Shown here: one piece after another, positions 1-14,949 of the stretch | Numbering within the stretch: position 1 is the stretch's first letter | Layout: each line of letters starts with the position of its first letter | IMG/VR virus record: IMGVR_UViG_2541047786_000001 | Reading direction: 5' to 3' (one strand) | DNA from: a virus | Lineage: Duplodnaviria; Heunggongvirae; Uroviricota; Caudoviricetes | DNA length: 40,052 nt | Notes under the pieces: model-generated | What the model was told of the DNA's origin: nothing | The model's database searches: none | Seen by the model: the letters and a program-made list of their open reading frames with translations, nothing else | Made by a program: the position numbers and the translations under genes

Positions 1-1143
1 CTATGCTGTTTTGATATCTACGATAATCCAGTCTTTACCACGATCATCATTGTATCGGTCGGTCATTTTTCTGGATTTATGACCTAACAACTTTTGCGTA
101 TCCAGACCCTGTTCCCGATATAACCGTTCTGACAGAGATCGCTGCTCATGAAATGTGGGCGCAGTTCCTGGCTCCCATTTTATGCCACATTTTTCCCTGG
201 CCTTTTTAAAAGCCGTTGTAAGAGTATTTGCAGACACCTGGTCTCCTCTGTTTGCTTGAGAGGTAGTGTGACGGTAATGGACCAGATATTTACTAACAAC
301 AGCATCCCTGCACTGAGATATAACTTCACGAAGGGTAATATTCAGAGCATCGCATTTCAGGTTAAGCGGAATAGCAAGTTTTGAACCGGTTTTTTCCTGA
401 GTAATGTGCAACATGTCGTCCCAGATATCAGAGAATTTCAAATTGCAGATATCGCCTAAACGTTGTCCAGTGACAAGAGCAAGTAGCATCCCGCATTTTA
501 AATAGGGCTGCCGTCTGCTTACGCTGTCAAATATTGCCTGCCATTCGGGCAGTGATAATCTTTGGCGGTTTACTCGATTTCGCGGTTGTTTTGTTGCCTG
601 CGCTGGGTTAAATCCTGGCGGAACATGTCCTGCGTGTTGTGCTTCTTTGAAGACGTCGATCAACACCATTCTCACGACTTGCGCCATCCTGTTATGACCT
701 TCAGCCTTTACAGCATCAATTATTTCGGCAATATCAAGTGCGGTAATATCCTTGAGGTGTTGCATTCCACAATGCTCACGGAAAAGACGAATGGGTTTGC
801 CTTTTTGCCGATAGGAGTTGGGTCTTAGTTCATTATGTTGCAGCCTGTCCTCCTGGATAGAAATATATTTATCAAGCCATTCTGTCACCGTAATGTCTGA
901 GCGCCTGCCTTTCATTCTTTCTAGACGCTCATTGACGCTTAATATTTGTCGGGTACGTTGTTCAGCAATAATGGTATTTGCTTCAGTAGCAACTTGTTTT
1001 GCTTCATTCTCATCAGTTCCTAAGCTATGAAAACGACCGGATAGTGGATGTTTGTATTGCCAATATACCTTTCCGGTTCGCTTATCTAATTTGCAATATA
1101 AATTGGGTATAGAGATTTTGTGAGATCGGGGTCTAGCAGCCAT
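1..1143 (-). CDS. int: Phage tyrosine integrase (lambda Int family), complete
   Basis: 380-aa ORF with stop TAG at 1-3 (minus strand). Aligns by eye along its length with lambda Int, including the C-terminal HELRSL...LGHK...Y...DDRG region. Overlaps the upstream xis by 11 bp, as in lambda. Confidence 0.9.
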   Translation of the reverse strand: MAARPRSHKISIPNLYCKLDKRTGKVYWQYKHPLSGRFHSLGTDENEAKQVATEANTIIAEQRTRQILSVNERLERMKGRRSDITVTEWLDKYISIQEDRLQHNELRPNSYRQKGKPIRLFREHCGMQHLKDITALDIAEIIDAVKAEGHNRMAQVVRMVLIDVFKEAQHAGHVPPGFNPAQATKQPRNRVNRQRLSLPEWQAIFDSVSRRQPYLKCGMLLALVTGQRLGDICNLKFSDIWDDMLHITQEKTGSKLAIPLNLKCDALNITLREVISQCRDAVVSKYLVHYRHTTSQANRGDQVSANTLTTAFKKAREKCGIKWEPGTAPTFHEQRSLSERLYREQGLDTQKLLGHKSRKMTDRYNDDRGKDWIIVDIKTA

Positions 1144-1369
1144 CAGCGATTATCCGTTGGAGTTTTGGGTTTGCGTTTATTGGGAGTTGCGGTTCTGCAA
1201 GCGTTCCTACAAAACGGGAATTTCGGTCAATCATCCAGTAGCGACCAACTTTTATAGCGGGTGGGGCCATCATTTTCCCTTGCGCGTATTTTTTCAGAAC
1301 TCGCTCACTTGGTGCTAAGTCCCCAAATTCTTCTTTAGCCCAGTCCTGTAAAGTGATTAGTCGAGACAT
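1133..1369 (-). CDS. xis: Excisionase (Xis-like, winged-helix)
   Basis: 78-aa ORF directly upstream of and overlapping int. N-terminal LITLQDW resembles the lambda Xis LTLQEW motif. GGAGG ribosome-binding site 6-7 nt upstream of the ATG at 1369. Confidence 0.75.
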   Translation of the reverse strand: MSRLITLQDWAKEEFGDLAPSERVLKKYAQGKMMAPPAIKVGRYWMIDRNSRFVGTLAEPQLPINANPKLQRIIADGC

Positions 1370-1508
1370 TTGTCCTCCTCTTAGCTGCTGAGGGAGTTTG
1401 TGACCGATATATCTGACATGATATTAAGCTCATGGCAGGTACATCTCTTGACTGGTCATAGAGATAAATTTAATGCTGAGAAATGCAGTATTGAATTTAT
1501 CAATTTTT

Positions 1509-1748
1509 CTATTTCCTGCGTATGGCACGTAACTTCTTAATGTGTTCTGCTGTTTCGATCTCTTCAGCTATCCGATCTGCGTCAGCTTTATTCACAGGTT
1601 CAAAGTCATGATTAAAGCGGAACATGCTGGCGATACATGTTCTGCCTTTTCGGATGTAGTGAACTTTGTTGTGAGTGGAACGCAGGATTTTGCAGGGAGT
1701 GCCGTGGTGGTCGACGTACCAGGTGTTAGGGTAAATCACTCTGAACAT
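1509..1748 (-). CDS. Hypothetical small early-left protein
   Basis: 79-aa ORF with an AAGG ribosome-binding site about 7 nt upstream of the ATG at 1748. Same strand and operon context as neighbouring early-left genes. No recognisable motif. Confidence 0.45.
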   Translation of the reverse strand: MFRVIYPNTWYVDHHGTPCKILRSTHNKVHYIRKGRTCIASMFRFNHDFEPVNKADADRIAEEIETAEHIKKLRAIRRK

Positions 1749-1773
1749 TCTTGACCTTGTGTTGTGCGGATTG

Positions 1774-2058
1774 TTATTCAGTGCCGATATTTACCTTTAT
1801 CGCGTATACCTTTACCGGTTTATCACCGAAGTGCGGATGTGTGATTGTCTTCACTTCATATCCGTCATACGGAACATCAACTCTGCGGCTGGAATCGTCG
1901 CGCTTCGGATATCCCTTTGTGATAATCAGGCGGTCATGCTTACGGTTAACGAGGCGCTTTTTCCAGTAGTCATTACACAGGCGATACTCTTCCGTTTTCT
2001 CTCCGCGAATCATGGCATCGAAGTATTCACCTTTAACGGCAAGTTGCAGGTTAGCCAC
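1774..2058 (-). CDS. ASCH/PUA-like small protein (putative)
   Basis: The track ORF 1774-2142 has no ribosome-binding site at its first Met. An in-frame GTG at 2058 is preceded by AAGGAG with 6-nt spacing and overlaps the stop of the upstream gene (GTGGCTAA). The KGEYFDAMIRGEKTEEYR segment resembles the ASCH-domain N-terminus; the domain call is from memory. Confidence 0.5.
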   Translation of the reverse strand: MANLQLAVKGEYFDAMIRGEKTEEYRLCNDYWKKRLVNRKHDRLIITKGYPKRDDSSRRVDVPYDGYEVKTITHPHFGDKPVKVYAIKVNIGTE

Positions 2059-2791
2059 GGTTAACTCCTTGCTGTGTGGCGTCGAGTAATAAATCCCACA
2101 ACCGCTGAGAGCAATTTCCGCATGTACAGCGTTGACCCACAACGTTTATCGCGTTGCTGATTTCCGGCGTTACCTGTTTAGGAACCATAACCCAACCATC
2201 CGGAGTTACCGGAAGCGAGAACGGCAGCACATCTCTGTGAACAAGTTTTTGCTGTGACAGGTTATCCAGAACTTTCTGTACTGCTGCATCACCGAATACA
2301 CCAAGCGCATCTGCCATAACTCCTACAACCTGATAAGCCTCAGCGCATACCGTGGATAAACCATCCGGAATTACCGGAGAGTTGCCGGGTTCTTTAATGT
2401 GCAAGCGAGGCTCACCATCTTTTGGCTCAGGCCACTGGCGCTCCATGTTGATCTTCAATTTATCTTCCATAGCAACGGTAATTTCAGCATCGCTGATGCC
2501 AGCACGGCGCTGTGCATCCCACAACAGAAACTGCATATCAGCCCACTCGCTAAGATCGTCTGGTTCGGCTGCGGCTTCCAGTGCCTCTTTTGAGAGGTGT
2601 TTCAGTGGACCAATGGGGCCAACGCAGCCAAATGTGGAGTCAGACCATTTGGCATGCTCGTGGCGAATCTGTTCGCGTTCCAGTGATGCCAGTGCAATTC
2701 GTGCTAGTTCCATTTGTTCGCCACGAGTAAGCCCGTTTTCAAGCGGATTTTTAATGAACAATTCAATACGTTCTTTGGTAATAGTGGTCAT
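2051..2791 (-). CDS. Hypothetical protein with N-terminal MazG-like NTP pyrophosphohydrolase-like region (possible dATP/dGTP diphosphohydrolase family)
   Basis: 246-aa ORF. The segment KEALEAAAEPDDLSEWADMQFLLWDAQRRAGISDAEITVAMEDKLKINMERQW fits the all-alpha MazG/HisE pattern (E..E, EWAD, K..N..R.W). The C-terminal half carries a CTCGNC cysteine cluster. ATGA overlap with the downstream-of-operon gene at 2788-2791. Confidence 0.6.
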   Translation of the reverse strand: MTTITKERIELFIKNPLENGLTRGEQMELARIALASLEREQIRHEHAKWSDSTFGCVGPIGPLKHLSKEALEAAAEPDDLSEWADMQFLLWDAQRRAGISDAEITVAMEDKLKINMERQWPEPKDGEPRLHIKEPGNSPVIPDGLSTVCAEAYQVVGVMADALGVFGDAAVQKVLDNLSQQKLVHRDVLPFSLPVTPDGWVMVPKQVTPEISNAINVVGQRCTCGNCSQRLWDLLLDATQQGVNRG

Positions 2792-2997
2792 GTGTTAATC
2801 CTCAAAACTTTATGCCCGGGCGCAAAAGTACGTGTTTTGTCTTTGCTTATTCGCCACCCGTCTTTACGGGCCTCTTTTGCACAACCAGACCATGACGTAC
2901 CGATATACTCACCGAAGTCTGGCACTGGATATACACCTTCCGTACACTGGCGACAATCACAATAGAGATGCATGGTGTAACTTGCGGCAATAGCCAT
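2788..2997 (-). CDS. Small Cys-rich protein (putative zinc-binding), likely start at internal ATG 2997
   Basis: The track ORF 2788-3039 has an in-frame ATG at 2997 preceded by AAGAGAG and placed 1 nt after the TGA of the upstream remnant ORF (TGAtATG). CDCRQC plus a further Cys within 69 aa. Confidence 0.5.
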   Translation of the reverse strand: MAIAASYTMHLYCDCRQCTEGVYPVPDFGEYIGTSWSGCAKEARKDGWRISKDKTRTFAPGHKVLRINT

Positions 2998-2998
2998 A

Positions 2999-3139
2999 TC
3001 ACTCTCTTTTTCCCTGAAGCATGGCAGCGTGGCAGGCATCCTCTACGCCCTTAACTGCATCTGCGCAGTAGTTATAGCGATTGCATTCCACTAACTTCTG
3101 CCTGAGATTTTCAATTGCTTGCGCGACATCAGCCTGTAT
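2999..3139 (-). pseudogene. 3-prime remnant of an early-left gene truncated by IS911 (reads ...DVAQAIENLRQKLVECNRYNYCADAVKGVEDACHAAMLQGKRE*)
   Basis: The frame is open from the IS911 boundary at 3140 down to TGA at 2999-3001, with no start codon. Its stop is coupled to the start of the Cys-rich gene. Own translation. Confidence 0.35.
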
Positions 3140-3170: not shown

Positions 3171-4318
<1,148 letters not shown>

Positions 4319-4526
4319 TATGGCACCTGTGTTGTTCTGAGGTGAGCATATCACCTCTGTTCAGGTGGCCAAATTCAGTAAACCACTTCACTTAAATAGT
4401 GGATTGCGGTAGTAAAGATTGTGCCTGTCTTTTAACCACATCAGGCTCGGTGGTTCTCGTGTACCCCTACAACGAGAAATCGGATAAACTCTATTCACCC
4501 CTACAGAGAGCAAAAGAGAAACGCCG

Positions 4527-5124: not shown

Positions 5125-5397
5125 TCATCTCGCCGTCAGTTGTTTTGATTTCCGGTAGCCTGCCGCGTAAAGAGCTACGTTCGGAAGACAAGTTGAACCT
5201 TCATATTTTCTGGTCAACGTTGTCAGAGTTATCACTTCTGCTCTCATTGCTGGTTTGAGCTTGCATTGCAAGACCACTCGTGAAGGGGTTGGCCTGTGTA
5301 GCTTGTCGGAGCTGATCGCCTCCTGACTTTGCAGATTTGCGCGACGAGCTCTACGGCGAGAAGCTGCGGTGCCTTTAAATTCTGTTTTTCTGGACAT
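5125..5397 (-). CDS. N: N-like transcription antitermination protein with Arg-rich motif
   Basis: Start ATG at 5397 preceded by GGGAGG. N-terminal MSRKTEFKGTAASRRRARRANLQ is an arginine-rich motif of the kind found in lambda, P22 and phage 21 N proteins. Located downstream of pL and nutL. Confidence 0.7.
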   Translation of the reverse strand: MSRKTEFKGTAASRRRARRANLQSQEAISSDKLHRPTPSRVVLQCKLKPAMRAEVITLTTLTRKYEGSTCLPNVALYAAGYRKSKQLTAR

Positions 5398-5496
5398 GGA
5401 TTCCTCCCGAATAAACTTTGGCGATGCAATCTCGAAGCTCCTCCTGAGACGGTTGCTTCGGCATTGCATCCCACAGCTTATGTGGTTGGGTGATCT

Positions 5497-5833: not shown

Positions 5834-6586
5834 TTATGCTGCAAGTCTCTTAACCCAAGTCTCTCTTTTGGAGAATGGTAGAACTTGGCTTGATTCATGG
5901 AAGAGTAAGGAGAGTTGTTGCATTTGATCACCAATTGCTTCGCTGTCTATAACAACAAATCTGTTGTTATACTCCTCACTTGAAGCTTTAAGATCAATTA
6001 GTTTCCCAAGCAATGAGTAAGCACTATTCCAGCTTCCTCCGTGTTTCACGCTTGATGTAAAAACGTATTTAGGTATGTCGGTTTTTATTGTTACAGGGAC
6101 GGTAATTTGATGTCCACTCAAGCCATATACGTTTTCACGAAGAGAAAGTGCGTCTCTAAGCTCTGTGTGATATAGATAATCAATAACCATACTTTCAAAC
6201 TTTTCAGCTTGAACTGGCTGATACCAGTCTAACGACAAAGTTGATGCGAGTATACCAGCTCTAATTATGTTCGATGTAATCGCACCGACATCCTTTTCTG
6301 TTGCCCAAGCAATGATTTCTCCTCGAGCATTGAGTTCTGCGCCTTCTTTAAGCAGTAATTGTCGTATCTCATCAAGTCGTTTTTTGGTAAGCGAGATCCC
6401 TCTTGCCTCCATATTCATTAAGGCATCGCATCTGTCACTAACTAAATACCTACCATTGACTTCACGGATAAAGGCACCGACATGCTCTCCATCATCACAG
6501 TAAGTGAATGGACTGATAATTCTCAAGGTCTTGCCTATTGGATGGCATTCGAAACCTAGTTGTGAGATCACTGTTGAGCACATCAT
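5834..6586 (-). CDS. Unknown-function protein B of the cI-N moron operon (rexB-position gene)
   Basis: 250-aa ORF whose start ATG 6586-6584 overlaps the stop of the upstream 185-aa gene in an ATGA arrangement. AT-rich by eye. No motif I can assign and no obvious transmembrane segment. Confidence 0.75.
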   Translation of the reverse strand: MMCSTVISQLGFECHPIGKTLRIISPFTYCDDGEHVGAFIREVNGRYLVSDRCDALMNMEARGISLTKKRLDEIRQLLLKEGAELNARGEIIAWATEKDVGAITSNIIRAGILASTLSLDWYQPVQAEKFESMVIDYLYHTELRDALSLRENVYGLSGHQITVPVTIKTDIPKYVFTSSVKHGGSWNSAYSLLGKLIDLKASSEEYNNRFVVIDSEAIGDQMQQLSLLFHESSQVLPFSKRETWVKRLAA

Positions 6587-7140
6587 ATTCCAAACCCCAT
6601 TTGCCCCGACTCATCTTCAAGCGGTAAAGGTATTCTCCCAGAGTAAGTTATGTTCAGATGTTTACAGAAGTAATTCCAATACCCTACCAGGTCATCTGGG
6701 TTTATGTCATCTTCGATTGGAAACGCTATTCTATCACTATAGTATCCAGCTTCTTCATAGTATACATGGTAGTGAGCACCGTAAATGATATCTTGGTACT
6801 TCGGATGATCGACCTTGTAACTATTCGTGTGTTTGTCAAAGTGATAGGTATCTACCGCGAAAACCCTCTTGTTATGATAGAAAGCAATAATATTTATTTT
6901 AGGGTAAGAAATCGGGTCATCAGGTTCTGAATCCTGATCTGGTTTCCATTTCAGTTCAAACTTTAGCCCTTGTATAGGTATACAATCCTCATCCAAGGGG
7001 ATGATATGGGCTTGTAGCCACATATCAGAGCGACTTGGTTTCTGTTTCCATTTAACGCCAGAAAAGTTAACTATTTTTTTACAATAAAGTACTTTATCAA
7101 CTTCTACTTGGCTTGGCTGATAATCATCTATTTTTGCCAA
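6583..7140 (-). CDS. Unknown-function protein A of the cI-N moron operon (rexA-position gene)
   Basis: 185-aa ORF beginning with TTG at 7140 (MAKIDDYQ...), 40 bp downstream of the cI stop. Acidic, Tyr/His/Pro-rich (HYHVYYEEAGYY). The start codon is uncertain; the next in-frame Met is residue 40. Confidence 0.7.
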   Translation of the reverse strand: MAKIDDYQPSQVEVDKVLYCKKIVNFSGVKWKQKPSRSDMWLQAHIIPLDEDCIPIQGLKFELKWKPDQDSEPDDPISYPKINIIAFYHNKRVFAVDTYHFDKHTNSYKVDHPKYQDIIYGAHYHVYYEEAGYYSDRIAFPIEDDINPDDLVGYWNYFCKHLNITYSGRIPLPLEDESGQMGFGI

Positions 7141-9536: not shown

Positions 9537-10234
9537 AAAACATCGCCGCACAGATGGTTAATTTTGACCGTGAGCAGATGCGTCGGATCGCCAACAACAT
9601 GCCGGAACAGTACGACGAAAAGCCGCAGGTACAGCAGGTAGCGCAGATCATCAACGGTGTGTTCAGCCAGTTACTGGCAACTTTCCCGGCGAGTCTGGCT
9701 AACCGTGACCAGAACGAACTGAACGAAATCCGCCGCCAGTGGGTTCTGGCTTTCCGGGAAAACGGGATCACCACAATGGAACAGGTTAACGCAGGAATGC
9801 GCGTAGCCCGTCGGCAGAATCGACCATTTCTGCCATCACCCGGGCAGTTTGTTGCATGGTGCCGGGAAGAAGCATCCGTTATCGCCGGACTGCCAAACGT
9901 CAGCGAGCTGGTTGATATGGTTTACGAGTATTGCCGGAAGCGAGGCCTGTATCCGGATGCAGAGTCTTATCCGTGGAAATCGAACGCGCACTACTGGCTG
10001 GTTACCAACCTGTACCAGAACATGCGGGCCAATGCGCTGACTGACGCGGAATTACGACGCAAGGCTGCCGATGAACTGACCTGTATGACAGCGCGAATTA
10101 ACCGTGGTGAGACGATACCTGAACCAGTAAAACAACTTCCTGTCATGGGCGGCAGACCTCTAAATCGTGTTCAGGCGCTGGCGAAGATCGCAGAAATTAA
10201 AGCTAAGTTAGGACTGAAAGGAGCAAGTGTATGA
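9533..10234 (+). CDS. P: Replication protein P (DnaB helicase loader)
   Basis: 233 aa, collinear with lambda P (MKNIAAQMVNFDREQMRRIANN...). ATGA overlap with the O stop. Confidence 0.95.
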   Translation: MKNIAAQMVNFDREQMRRIANNMPEQYDEKPQVQQVAQIINGVFSQLLATFPASLANRDQNELNEIRRQWVLAFRENGITTMEQVNAGMRVARRQNRPFLPSPGQFVAWCREEASVIAGLPNVSELVDMVYEYCRKRGLYPDAESYPWKSNAHYWLVTNLYQNMRANALTDAELRRKAADELTCMTARINRGETIPEPVKQLPVMGGRPLNRVQALAKIAEIKAKLGLKGASV

Positions 10235-10521
10235 CGGGCAAAGAGGCAATTATTCATTACCTGGGGACGCATAATAGCTTCTGTGCGCCGGACGTTGCCG
10301 CGCTAACAGGCGCAACAGTAACCAGCATAAATCAGGCCGCGGCTAAAATGGCACGGGCAGGTCTTCTGGTTATCGAAGGTAAGGTCTGGCGAACGGTGTA
10401 TTACCGGTTTGCTACCAAGGAAGAACGGGAAGGAAAGATGAGCACGAACCTGATTTTTAAGGAGTGTCGCCAGAGTGCCACGATGAAACGGATATTGGCG
10501 GTATATGGAGTTAAAAGATGA
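10231..10521 (+). CDS. ren: Ren (Rex exclusion escape protein)
   Basis: 96 aa, collinear with lambda Ren (MTGKEAIIHYLGTHNSFCAPDVAALTGATV...). Overlaps the P stop. Confidence 0.9.
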   Translation: MTGKEAIIHYLGTHNSFCAPDVAALTGATVTSINQAAAKMARAGLLVIEGKVWRTVYYRFATKEEREGKMSTNLIFKECRQSATMKRILAVYGVKR

Positions 10522-10546: not shown

Positions 10547-10579
10547 AGGCCTGCAGGTAATCGCAGGCCTTTTTATTTG
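10547..10579 (+). terminator. Rho-independent terminator (tR2-like) between ren and ninB
   Basis: Hairpin AGGCCTGC-aggtaatc-GCAGGCCT followed by TTTTTATTT. Confidence 0.6.
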
Positions 10580-10594: not shown

Positions 10595-11035
10595 ATGAAA
10601 AAACTAACCTTTGAAATTCGATCTCCGGCACATCAGCAAAACGCTATTCACGCAGTACAGCAAATCCTTCCAGACCCAACCAAACCAATCGTAGTAACCA
10701 TTCAGGAACGCAACCGCAGCTTAGACCAAAACAGGAAGCTATGGGCCTGCTTAGGTGACGTCTCTCGTCAGGTTGAATGGCATGGTCGCTGGCTGGATGC
10801 AGAAAGCTGGAAGTGTGTGTTTACCGCAGCATTAAAGCAGCAGGATGTTGTTCCTAACCTTGCCGGGAATGGCTTTGTGGTAATAGGCCAGTCAACCAGC
10901 AGGATGCGTGTAAGCGAATTTGCGGAGCTATTAGAGCTTATACAGGCATTCGGTACAGAGCGTGGCGTTAAGTGGTCAGACGAAGCGCGACTGGCTCTCG
11001 AATGGAAAGCGCGATGGGGAGATCGGGCTGCATGA
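10595..11035 (+). CDS. ninB: NinB (Orf-family recombination mediator)
   Basis: Start MKKLTFEIRSPAHQQNAIH... matches lambda NinB. The first six residues of the track ORF are excluded. GGGAGAGGGAAG ribosome-binding site. Confidence 0.9.
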   Translation: MKKLTFEIRSPAHQQNAIHAVQQILPDPTKPIVVTIQERNRSLDQNRKLWACLGDVSRQVEWHGRWLDAESWKCVFTAALKQQDVVPNLAGNGFVVIGQSTSRMRVSEFAELLELIQAFGTERGVKWSDEARLALEWKARWGDRAA

Positions 11036-11559
11036 CTATCAAATCAAATACGCCAGCACACGACAAGGACTGCTGGCAAACGCCGCTTTGGCTTTTTGAT
11101 GCACTGGATATTGAGTTTGGATTCTGGCTGGATTCGGCAGCGAGCGACAAAAATGCTCTGTGCGCTCACTGGCTAACTGAGGACGACGACGCGCTCAATT
11201 CTGAGTGGGTAAGCCACGGTGCAATCTGGAATAACCCACCGTACAGCAATATCAGGCCGTGGGTGGAAAAAGCCGCTGAGCAGTGTATACAACAGCGACA
11301 GACGGTAGTGATGCTTGTGCCAGAGGATATGTCTGTCGGATGGTTCAGCAAGGCTCTGGAGAGTGTTGACGAAGTTCGTATTATCACTGATGGACGGATT
11401 AATTTTATCGAACCATCGACAGGGCTGGAGAAGAAGGGAAACAGCAAAGGCTCCATGCTGCTGATTTGGCGACCGTTCATCAGTCCTCGACGGATGTTTA
11501 CTACCGTATCCAAAGCGGCATTGATGGCGATCGGGCAGGGCGTCAGGAGGGCTGCATGA
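11032..11559 (+). CDS. Phage DNA N6-adenine methyltransferase (Dam-like)
   Basis: Likely start at ATG 11032, overlapping the ninB stop as ATGA. NPPY catalytic motif ([14 protein letters not shown]) typical of N6-adenine methyltransferases. Confidence 0.8.
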
Positions 11560-11732
11560 GACGACAGCGACGAAGCATCACCGACATAATCTGCGAAAAC
11601 TGCAAATACCTTCCAACGAAACGCTCCAGAAATAAACGCAAGCTAATCCCAAAAGAATCTGACGTAAAAACCTTCAATTACACAGCCCACCTGTGGGATA
11701 TCCGGTGGCTAAGATATCGTGCGAGGAAATGA
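11556..11732 (+). CDS. ninE: NinE
   Basis: 58 aa ([23 protein letters not shown]...[14 protein letters not shown]). ATGA overlap with the methyltransferase stop. Matches lambda/DLP12 NinE from memory. Confidence 0.75.
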
Positions 11733-12076
11733 CAATGGATTATTCACAGTTAAGTGATTTTGAAATTAACAGAATGGTAGGAGACATAATTTTTAAAGGC
11801 CTTTGGGCAAGTAAACCGGAAACATCAGGGAATAACACCAACAAATGGTATTACGGAAATGCTGATACAACTTTTGAGCCATTAAATCATTTGCCTGACT
11901 ACTGCAATGATCCGAGCGCTTCATGGCCGATTATTGAGAAATACAGGATTTCTATCTTAGACCAGTTAACTGAATGGTGTGTGGATGCAAAAGGCGTAAG
12001 CCCAATATTTGATACCAGACCTCTCCGCGCCGCCATGATTGTCTTTCTCCTGATGCAGGAGGCCAATAATGCTTAG
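11729..12076 (+). CDS. Conserved hypothetical nin-region protein
   Basis: 115 aa from ATG 11729 ([19 protein letters not shown]...), overlapping the ninE stop. No assignable motif. Confidence 0.55.
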
Positions 12077-12263
12077 CCCATCTCAATCCCTTCAATACCT
12101 GAAAGAAAGCATAGAGCGGGCTTCAATGTGCACAGAGTGGATTCTATCTAGGTTTAGCGCATACAGAAGATTGCCGGTAAAGGGCATGCCAAGCAAGTCG
12201 ATGCTGCATATGCAAAAGAATGCGCGCTGGAAGGTATGGCGAGAACACAGGTTATGTGGCTGA
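12069..12263 (+). CDS. Small nin-region ORF (NinF-like N-terminus, divergent remainder; possibly frame-disrupted)
   Basis: The N-terminus [10 protein letters not shown] resembles lambda NinF, but the rest does not. An alternative +2 frame encodes ...[38 protein letters not shown] ending at 12281-12283, which suggests a frameshift or mosaic junction. Confidence 0.35.
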
Positions 12264-12282
12264 AAGAGGGGGTTATTAAGGC

Positions 12283-12645
12283 GTGAATACCTACAGCATC
12301 ACATTACCCTGGCCTCCGAGCAATAATCGCTATTACCGCCATAATCGCGGGCGCACGCACGTCAGCGCAGAGGGGCAGGCATACCGCGATAACGTCGCCC
12401 GAATCATTAAAAACGCAATGCTGGATATCGGCCTGGCTATGCCTGTGAAAATCCGCATTGAGTGCCACATGCCGGATCGCCGTCGCCGTGACCTGGATAA
12501 TCTGCAAAAAGCCGCTTTTGACGCACTCACTAAAGCAGGTTTCTGGCTGGATGATGCTCAGGTCGTTGATTACCGCGTTGTGAAGATGCCTGTTACCAAA
12601 GGTGGGAGGCTGGAACTGACCATCACCGAAATGGGGAATGAATGA
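12283..12645 (+). CDS. rusA: RusA Holliday-junction resolvase
   Basis: 120 aa with a GTG start at 12283 and AAAGAGGGGG upstream. The sequence is collinear with E. coli DLP12 RusA ([28 protein letters not shown]...). Confidence 0.9.
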
Positions 12646-13439: not shown

Positions 13440-14522
13440 TTAGAACTGATAAACCAGACCTACAGCGACGATGTCGTCGGTATCAATACCAGCTGTTTTG
13501 GTAAACTTACTATCGTCAATTAAGTTGATTTTGTAATCAACAAAAGTGGACATGTTTTTATTAAAGTAGTAAGTAGCACCGACATCGACATACTTGACTA
13601 AGTCTCGGTCACCATGAACACCAAGGTCTTTACCTTTTGACTGAAGGTAAGCAACAGATGGACGCAGACCGAAGTCAAACTGATATTGTGCTACTGCTTC
13701 AAAGTTTTGTGCTTTGTTTGCAATATGGTTATTACCAAAAACGGTCATATTCTGAGTTTCAGAATATGTGGTAGCCAGATAGATATTGTTCGCATCATAT
13801 TTCAGGCCTGCAGCCCATACTTCCGCATTTTTGCCGGAGGCATTGAATTTGCTCTTACCATAGGCGACCTGACCGTCAGTGCGATCTGATTTAGCATAGG
13901 TTGCACCCACGCCGAATCCTTCATACTCATAAGTAGTGGAGAAACCGAAACCATCACCATTGGCTTCAGTTACGTCAGTGCGGTCATTTTTACCCTGATA
14001 CTGAGCAGCAAAGTTCAGGCCATCGACCAGACCAAAGAAGTCGTTGTTACGATAAGTTGCAACACCAGTAGTGCGACCAGTCATGAACACATCTGTTTGG
14101 GTCCAGGTATCACCACCGAATTCTGGCAGAACGTCAGTCCACGCACCGATGTCGTATGCTACACCGTAGTTACGGCCGTAATCGATTGAGCCGTAATCAC
14201 CAAATTTCAGGCCTGCAAATGCAAGACGGGTTTTGTCTTTGGAAGAACCTTGAGATTCAGCACGGTTGCCTTTGAATTCATATTCCCACTGACCGAAACC
14301 AGTCAGTTGATCGTTGATTTGGGTTTCACCTTTGAAGCCAAGACGGGCATAAGTAGTATCACCATCATCTGCATCATTAGAGGAGAAGTAGTGCTTGGCA
14401 TTAACTTTCCCGTATAGATCCAGCTTGTTACTGTCTTTATTATAAATTTCAGCTGCCTGAGCAGACATCGCCATCAGTACTGATGCAGCTACAGCAGAAA
14501 TTGCCACTGTTAATTTTTTCAT
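13440..14522 (-). CDS. nmpC: Outer-membrane general porin (OmpC/NmpC/Lc family), phage-encoded moron
   Basis: 360 aa from ATG 14522, with signal peptide [23 protein letters not shown] and the C-terminal aromatic residue (VGLVYQF) typical of beta-barrel porins. The 20 extra N-terminal residues of the track ORF are excluded. Same position and orientation relative to Q and the lysis genes as nmpC in DLP12. Confidence 0.9.
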
Positions 14523-14949
14523 TGTACGCCCTTTTTTTGAACTTTTATTAAAAAATGATGTCACTGCGCGATAAATATTCATCTAATCAATGTGATTATT
14601 TCAAGATGTAAGTTTTAGTTTCTCATTTAATTTGTGAAGTAGATCTCTATTTTTATCTGAACCTTTTCTATCTAATCCTATTCATGGCTCTTGTCTGAAC
14701 AAAAATAAATCTATTAGCTAATTTATATTAATGGCACTTATTTATAAGTGCTCTATAATTCTTTAGCTTAATTTAAACAAACTAAAAATAACATCGGAAA
14801 TTATTAACTGGTTATTTGTTGAAGTTTTCTTATGCATTTGTGGTGGTGTTTTGAACACTCGGTGGCATTCTCACAAATATCATTTAGTAGTTTACGTACG
14901 TAAAAAATTGGTTATGCTGTTAAGAGTGGTTACTTCGTCACACAGCTTA

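Follow-up and report, generated by a model that had tools for sequence, protein, structure and literature searches.

Which adenine is methylated by a small methyltransferase encoded in the nin region of a lambdoid Escherichia coli prophage, and of what use would such an enzyme be to the phage? We addressed these questions for an open reading frame (ORF) lying in a 40,052-nucleotide stretch of prophage DNA, which is referred to here as the window. Our overall reading, to which we assign a probability of roughly 0.93, is that this gene encodes a known orphan GATC methyltransferase of lambdoid phages, that it is probably a delayed-early gene whose product would supplement host Dam, and that it is carried as an optional mosaic cassette.

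The methyltransferase gene and its neighbors

The ORF is intact, running from an ATG at 11032 to a TGA at 11557-11559 (528 bp), and encodes the NPPY motif at residues 68-71. Its position between ninB and ninE, with ATGA overlaps at both ends, agrees with what the preliminary description had reported: the ninB stop (TGA, 11033-11035) shares bases with the methyltransferase start (ATG, 11032-11034), and the methyltransferase stop shares bases with the ninE start (ATG, 11556-11558). Such overlaps and tight gene packing are a general trait of lambdoid nin regions (PMC8022706) and are therefore not special to the methyltransferase gene. The counterpart of ninB in E. coli Nissle 1917 is annotated as "recombination protein NinB", and ninE is followed by genes for NinX, RusA, YlcG and a Q-type antiterminator. 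Genes for a CI-like repressor, Cro, CII, O and P are found in their usual places, ren occupies 10231-10521 (PHROG 142), and an N-like antiterminator gene is located on the minus strand at 5125-5469 (PHROG 271, E 2.3e-24). Coordinates of the features at the locus are collected in Table 1.

An in-frame upstream GTG at 10972, which would give a 195-residue product, was considered as the true start and rejected. The PF05869 and TIGR01712 profiles begin at residues 2-4 of the product that starts at ATG 11032, homologues begin at the equivalent of this ATG, and the N-terminal extension falls inside ninB.

Table 1. Features at the methyltransferase locus, in coordinates of the window.
Feature	Position	Strand	Remarks
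Terminator-like hairpin with T-run	10547..10578	+	between ren and ninB, at the position of lambda tR2
ninB (Orf-family recombination mediator)	10595..11035	+	PF05772, E 1.1e-54
Shine-Dalgarno-like GGGGAG	11016..11021	+	within the 3' end of ninB, 10 nt 5' of the methyltransferase ATG; putative function
Left repeat copy, GGGCTGCATGA	11025..11035	+	direct repeat search
Methyltransferase ORF	11032..11559	+	predicted phage orphan GATC N6-adenine DNA methyltransferase (M.EcoVT2Dam type), 175 aa
Motif-I-like codons, F31-W-L-D34-S-A36	11122..11139	+	strand beta1 and loop; presumed AdoMet-binding
Catalytic motif IV codons, N68-P-P-Y71	11233..11244	+	invariant in 39 homologues; after model strand 64-67
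AGGAGG	11545-11550	+	5 nt upstream of the ninE start
Right repeat copy, GGGCTGCATGA	11549..11559	+	holds the ninE start and the methyltransferase stop
ninE	11556..11732	+	PF05322, E 1.8e-41

Family assignment, distribution and absence of a restriction partner

The ORF product matches PF05869, "DNA N-6-adenine-methyltransferase (Dam)", with an E-value of 3.7e-65 and 219.1 bits against a cut-off of 28.1, residues 4-169 aligning to profile positions 1-167 of 169. A second match, to the NCBIfam equivalog TIGR01712 ("phage N-6-adenine-methyltransferase"), has an E-value of 1.2e-79 and 265.6 bits against a cut-off of 97.05 (residues 2-168 on positions 1-165 of 165). Scores this far above their cut-offs place the methyltransferase family match far beyond chance. 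A third match was to PHROG 111, "DNA methyltransferase".

This is a known gene, one that standard pipelines annotate routinely. Its counterpart in Nissle 1917 is WP_000153286.1, a "phage N-6-adenine-methyltransferase" encoded in a lambdoid prophage adjoining icd. The 528-bp gene occurs with 100% nucleotide identity in the isolated coliphages ev207, ev017, PhiR57_1 and PhiR63_2, and copies that are at least 95% identical are present in 244 phage records, the majority of which are Stx-converting phages. Prophages of E. coli Nissle 1917, CFT073, ATCC 11775 and many other strains carry the surrounding 1.8 kb with 100% identity. Of 5426 complete E. coli genomes, 4188 match some stretch of this 1.8-kb region and 556 contain 80% or more of it. 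A methyltransferase gene between ninB and ninE is common among lambda-like E. coli phages, Stx phages included.

In some protein database entries the methyltransferase appears fused with NinE, NinB, RusA, a Q-type antiterminator domain or a PF05269 domain. Frameshifts or gene-calling errors at the ATGA overlaps, or else mosaic rearrangements, probably account for these fused products.

The preliminary description had noted the absence of an adjacent restriction endonuclease, and our results agree: the flanking genes encode NinB and NinE, and the best PADLOC models are "oMTase" (orphan methyltransferase). In Nissle 1917, where the locus is identical, the only endonuclease annotated within 14 kb on either side is the RusA resolvase. 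A hidden restriction partner was also considered and rejected, as the neighbors are all standard nin-region genes; the adjacent cognate endonuclease gene by which a Type II restriction-modification system is recognized is thus absent. Combined with the PF05869 and TIGR01712 matches, the absence of a partner endonuclease bears out the earlier view of an orphan N6-adenine DNA methyltransferase of the nin region.

GATC as the predicted target

The protein is identical at 174 of 175 residues (99.4%) to orf32 (NP_050531.1) of the Stx2 phage VT2-Sakai, which likewise encodes 175 residues and overlaps ninB and ninE, its neighbors on either side, in the same way. The sole difference is an aspartate at position 51 in place of the alanine of orf32, in a variable alignment column in which alanine is found in other homologues too. 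The two carriers differ, VT2-Sakai being an Stx2 phage whereas the gene studied here belongs to a non-Stx lambdoid prophage adjoining icd in B2-type E. coli (Nissle 1917, CFT073).

We take orf32 to be the M.EcoVT2Dam of Radlinska & Bujnicki 2001, since no other methyltransferase is annotated in the 20 kb of VT2-Sakai examined; this assignment is our own. M.EcoVT2Dam is "known to target 5'-GATC-3'" (PMC6602927), and its cloning is credited to Radlinska & Bujnicki 2001, Acta Microbiol Pol 50:161, as cited in PMC7556043. From the near-complete identity to orf32 and this literature on M.EcoVT2Dam, we infer that the adenine of GATC is the target. Searching the literature for work on Dam enzymes encoded by Stx phages yielded no specific study.

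The preliminary description had given the target specificity as unknown, a statement that is superseded by the identity to a protein so assigned and reported to act on GATC. This was the only element that had given the observation its interest. The finding otherwise has little discovery value, since the gene is widespread and the enzyme, by our assignment, was characterized in 2001.

Conserved residues and predicted fold

Conservation was assessed in an alignment with 39 homologues of 59-86% identity. The NPPY motif and the serine that follows it (N68-P-P-Y71-S) are invariant, as are F31, L33, D34 and A36 of the motif-I-like segment, which presumably takes part in AdoMet binding by analogy with the class-I methyltransferase fold. 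An N-terminal D-x-W-x-T-P segment has invariant T17 and P18, and its D13 and W15 are conserved to 90% or more. Invariant residues are also spread through the C-terminal half of the protein: P97, D99, S101, W104, D113, E114 and R116, followed by G121, R122, K139, G140, W146, R147 and P148. The F-x-L-D-x-A segment, the presumed AdoMet-binding region, is present in the ORF product, and the family-invariant residues are intact.

An AlphaFold2 model built from the alignment (mean pLDDT 86.7, pTM 0.85) contains strands at residues 31-34, 64-67 (leading into NPPY), 92-97, 114-119, 141-146 and 155-160 with helices between them, and predicts a class-I (Rossmann-like) methyltransferase core. In this model strand beta1 and NPPY are only about 30 residues apart, and the chain ends about 30 residues after the last core strand. 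Such short spans around the core strands leave no room for a discrete target-recognition domain. Sequence search against PDB chains gave no significant match (the best, to SdiA with an E-value of 0.31, is spurious), so no solved structure of the PF05869 family can be found by sequence.

How so small an enzyme (175 residues) recognizes GATC with no recognition domain is a question for the whole family. To our knowledge it is explained by no solved structure, a point that has been remarked on for this family since about 1999-2001. The bare catalytic domain may read GATC in a mode beyond solved structures, for example through oligomerization or loops of the Rossmann core, and may have a specific phage role such as overcoming a GATC-linked defense or the timing of packaging or recombination with NinB and RusA. 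We give this combination little credence.

Expression and likely role

The terminator-like stem between ren and ninB (10547-10570) has 8 pairs, 6 of them G-C, and is followed by TTTTTATTT. A terminator is annotated at the corresponding place in phage 21, and by analogy with lambda the hairpin is likely to be the equivalent of tR2. The methyltransferase, whose gene lies 3' of it, would then be a delayed-early product of the rightward pR operon. A position behind a tR2-like terminator implies that production of the enzyme would depend on N antitermination and be confined to lytic growth or induction, and translation would continue from ninB through the ATGA overlap. Catalysis by the enzyme itself, the AdoMet-dependent N6 methylation of GATC adenine, would take place at the NPPY loop.

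This gene order bears on the proposal that the methyltransferase is an epigenetic regulator in the lysogen, where it would supplement host Dam and either stabilize lysogeny or alter host gene expression. Host Dam is needed for stable lysogeny of 933W (Murphy et al. 2008, as cited in PMC3342100), and a putative Dam methyltransferase of Phi24B, possibly a different gene, was detected as expressed in lysogen cultures (PMC3342100). However, the gene studied here is placed behind the tR2-like terminator in the pR operon, which is CI-repressed in a lysogen, and about 99.9% of E. coli GATC is already methylated by host Dam (PMC6602927). A regulatory role in the lysogen is therefore improbable in our view.

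Under the preferred reading, that of a lytic-phase supplement to host Dam, the likely role of the enzyme is to top up host methylation when phage replication outruns it, such that progeny would be fully GATC-methylated. Host Dam leaves the virion DNA of lambda and P22 under-methylated (PMC8022706), and a phage GATC methyltransferase made during replication would fill this gap. Full methylation would shield the DNA from methylation-sensitive GATC cleavage by MboI/DpnII-type enzymes and MutH and would normalize GATC-dependent processes; effects on SeqA or packaging are further candidate benefits. The function of phage Dam enzymes has been described as "still not well understood" (PMC7556043), and in SMRT methylomes the contribution of prophage Dam copies is inseparable from that of host Dam (PMC6602927). 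Why a phage should profit from a further GATC methyltransferase when its hosts already have Dam is a question that extends to the whole family.

GATC is rarer than expected in the window, with 114 sites compared to 158 +/- 10.5 in dinucleotide-preserving shuffles, and not one of 100 shuffles was as low in GATC. The sites are sparsest at 30-40 kb, where 15 are found in 10 kb. Under-representation of GATC has been reported for prophages generally (PMC6602927). This depletion sits oddly with a phage that invests in GATC methylation.

It also weighs on a mainly counter-defensive role, in which pre-methylated phage DNA would enter hosts that cut unmethylated GATC-containing sites. A phage-borne orphan methyltransferase with no cognate endonuclease is in keeping with this role, which is commonly argued for orphan methyltransferases of phages and agrees with what the preliminary description had suggested. 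We regard it as possible but rather unlikely. Depletion of GATC already lowers exposure of the phage, nearly all enterobacterial hosts have Dam such that progeny DNA is largely GATC-methylated anyway, and GATC methylation creates sensitivity to DpnI-type methyl-dependent enzymes. The literature offers no experiment in favor of counter-defense (PMC7556043).

A presence/absence cassette between ninB and ninE

An exact 11-nt direct repeat, GGGCTGCATGA, brackets the methyltransferase ORF and delimits a cassette of 524 bp. We used a synthetic 100-nt query in which the end of ninB was joined straight to the start of ninE. This query gave a single unbroken match of 95% identity in phage 21, CUS-3 and JEP4, and the methyltransferase cassette is absent at the ninB-ninE junction of these three phages. 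In the phage 21 alignment, ninB passes straight into ninE at GGGCGGCATGA (positions 599-679 of the phage 21 sequence, L003), which represents an empty site. The bounding repeat together with the empty junctions shows a presence/absence module that can be gained or lost by recombination at a conserved gene junction. Such a 524-bp cassette is typical lambdoid mosaicism.

Other features of the prophage

An IS3-family element (3171-4354, minus strand) with rve and HTH_Tnp_1 transposase ORFs is located between the integrase/DUF550 genes and sieB; the early-left coordinates listed alongside this element are 429-3139 and 4392-4502. No exo/bet/gam-sized ORFs were found in the early-left region of the window, which therefore looks deleted. 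The window differs from Nissle 1917 in having an intact lambda-type integrase of 380 residues and some 2.7 kb of additional DNA (429-3139), within which lies a dATP/dGTP pyrophosphohydrolase gene (2051-2791, minus strand).

Two overlapping genes on the minus strand (5834-6586 and 6583-7140) adjoin the CI repressor gene in the position of lambda rexA/rexB. One of the products contains DUF1828 (PHROG 1960) and the other has a weak match to DUF6978 (PHROG 2017). The pair matches the PADLOC candidate defense pair PDC-M24B (E 4.7e-10) and PDC-M24A (E 4.8e-4) and may represent a prophage-borne anti-phage system. An OmpC/NmpC-type porin gene (13440-14582, minus strand) lies on the opposite strand between the Q antiterminator and lysis genes, as in prophage DLP12, and an iss/bor lipoprotein gene is found further on in Nissle, whose locus is identical. 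Between ninX and rusA, the ORF at 12069-12286 (plus strand) corresponds to an N-terminally truncated DUF1364 pseudogene in the Nissle 1917 annotation, which suggests local decay within the nin region.

With an IS3 element in its early-left region the prophage may be defective, and the methyltransferase gene may never be expressed in this host. The gene could even be an inactive remnant in a decaying prophage, as the IS3 insertion and the truncated DUF1364 gene downstream might suggest. We consider this extremely improbable, given that the ORF is full-length, that all family-invariant residues are intact and that the gene is identical at the DNA level to that of isolated plaque-forming phages (ev207, ev017 and PhiR57_1).

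Comparison with other adenine methyltransferases

M.EcoGII and Hia5, adenine methyltransferases from enterobacteria and Haemophilus, resemble the present ORF in being orphan and prophage-borne. M.EcoGII is a sequence non-specific enzyme of class beta (PMC7544214), and belongs to a family other than that of the PF05869 product studied here. In the latter the motif-I-like segment (31-36) precedes NPPY (68-71), the reverse of the class beta order, in which motif IV comes before motif I. Relaxed or additional specificity beyond GATC, as in M.EcoGII or Hia5, might be suspected from the lack of a discrete target-recognition domain in the model, and non-specific prophage adenine methyltransferases do occur in E. 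coli (PMC7544214). Such relaxation is nevertheless very improbable here, as the 99.4% identical protein is reported to be GATC-specific and PF05869, not the family of class beta M.EcoGII, was the only match at E <= 0.01.

The predicted fold is closer to the M.TaqI-type gamma-class N6-adenine methyltransferases and to CAPAM/PCIF1, the eukaryotic cap m6Am writer, which is the nearest solved fold to the PF05869 family. Sequence identity of these proteins to the ORF product is only 15-17%. They also have large recognition or accessory domains, whereas the ORF product is essentially a bare catalytic domain.

E. coli Dam, T4 Dam and DpnM (alpha-class, PF02086) carry out AdoMet-dependent N6-adenine methylation through a (D/N)PPY loop with GATC as target, as predicted here. 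These enzymes have a target-recognition domain between motif I and motif IV, in contrast to the present protein, which is without such an insert. Membership of the E. coli Dam family (PF02086) was rejected, PF05869 being the sole family matched at E <= 0.01. The term "Dam-like" used in the preliminary description is thus apt for function but misleading for lineage: the protein belongs to PF05869, the family of phages HP1, T1 and VT2, and PF02086 is unmatched.

The Dam enzymes of phages HP1 and T1 belong to this same PF05869/TIGR01712 family and methylate GATC. These are distant phages, and their genes have genomic contexts other than that of the ORF between ninB and ninE. HP1 and VT-2 are listed among phages with Dam-like genes (PMC7556043). 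The enzyme of the present prophage has the same target and chemistry as host Dam and a different lineage, and is not its homologue.
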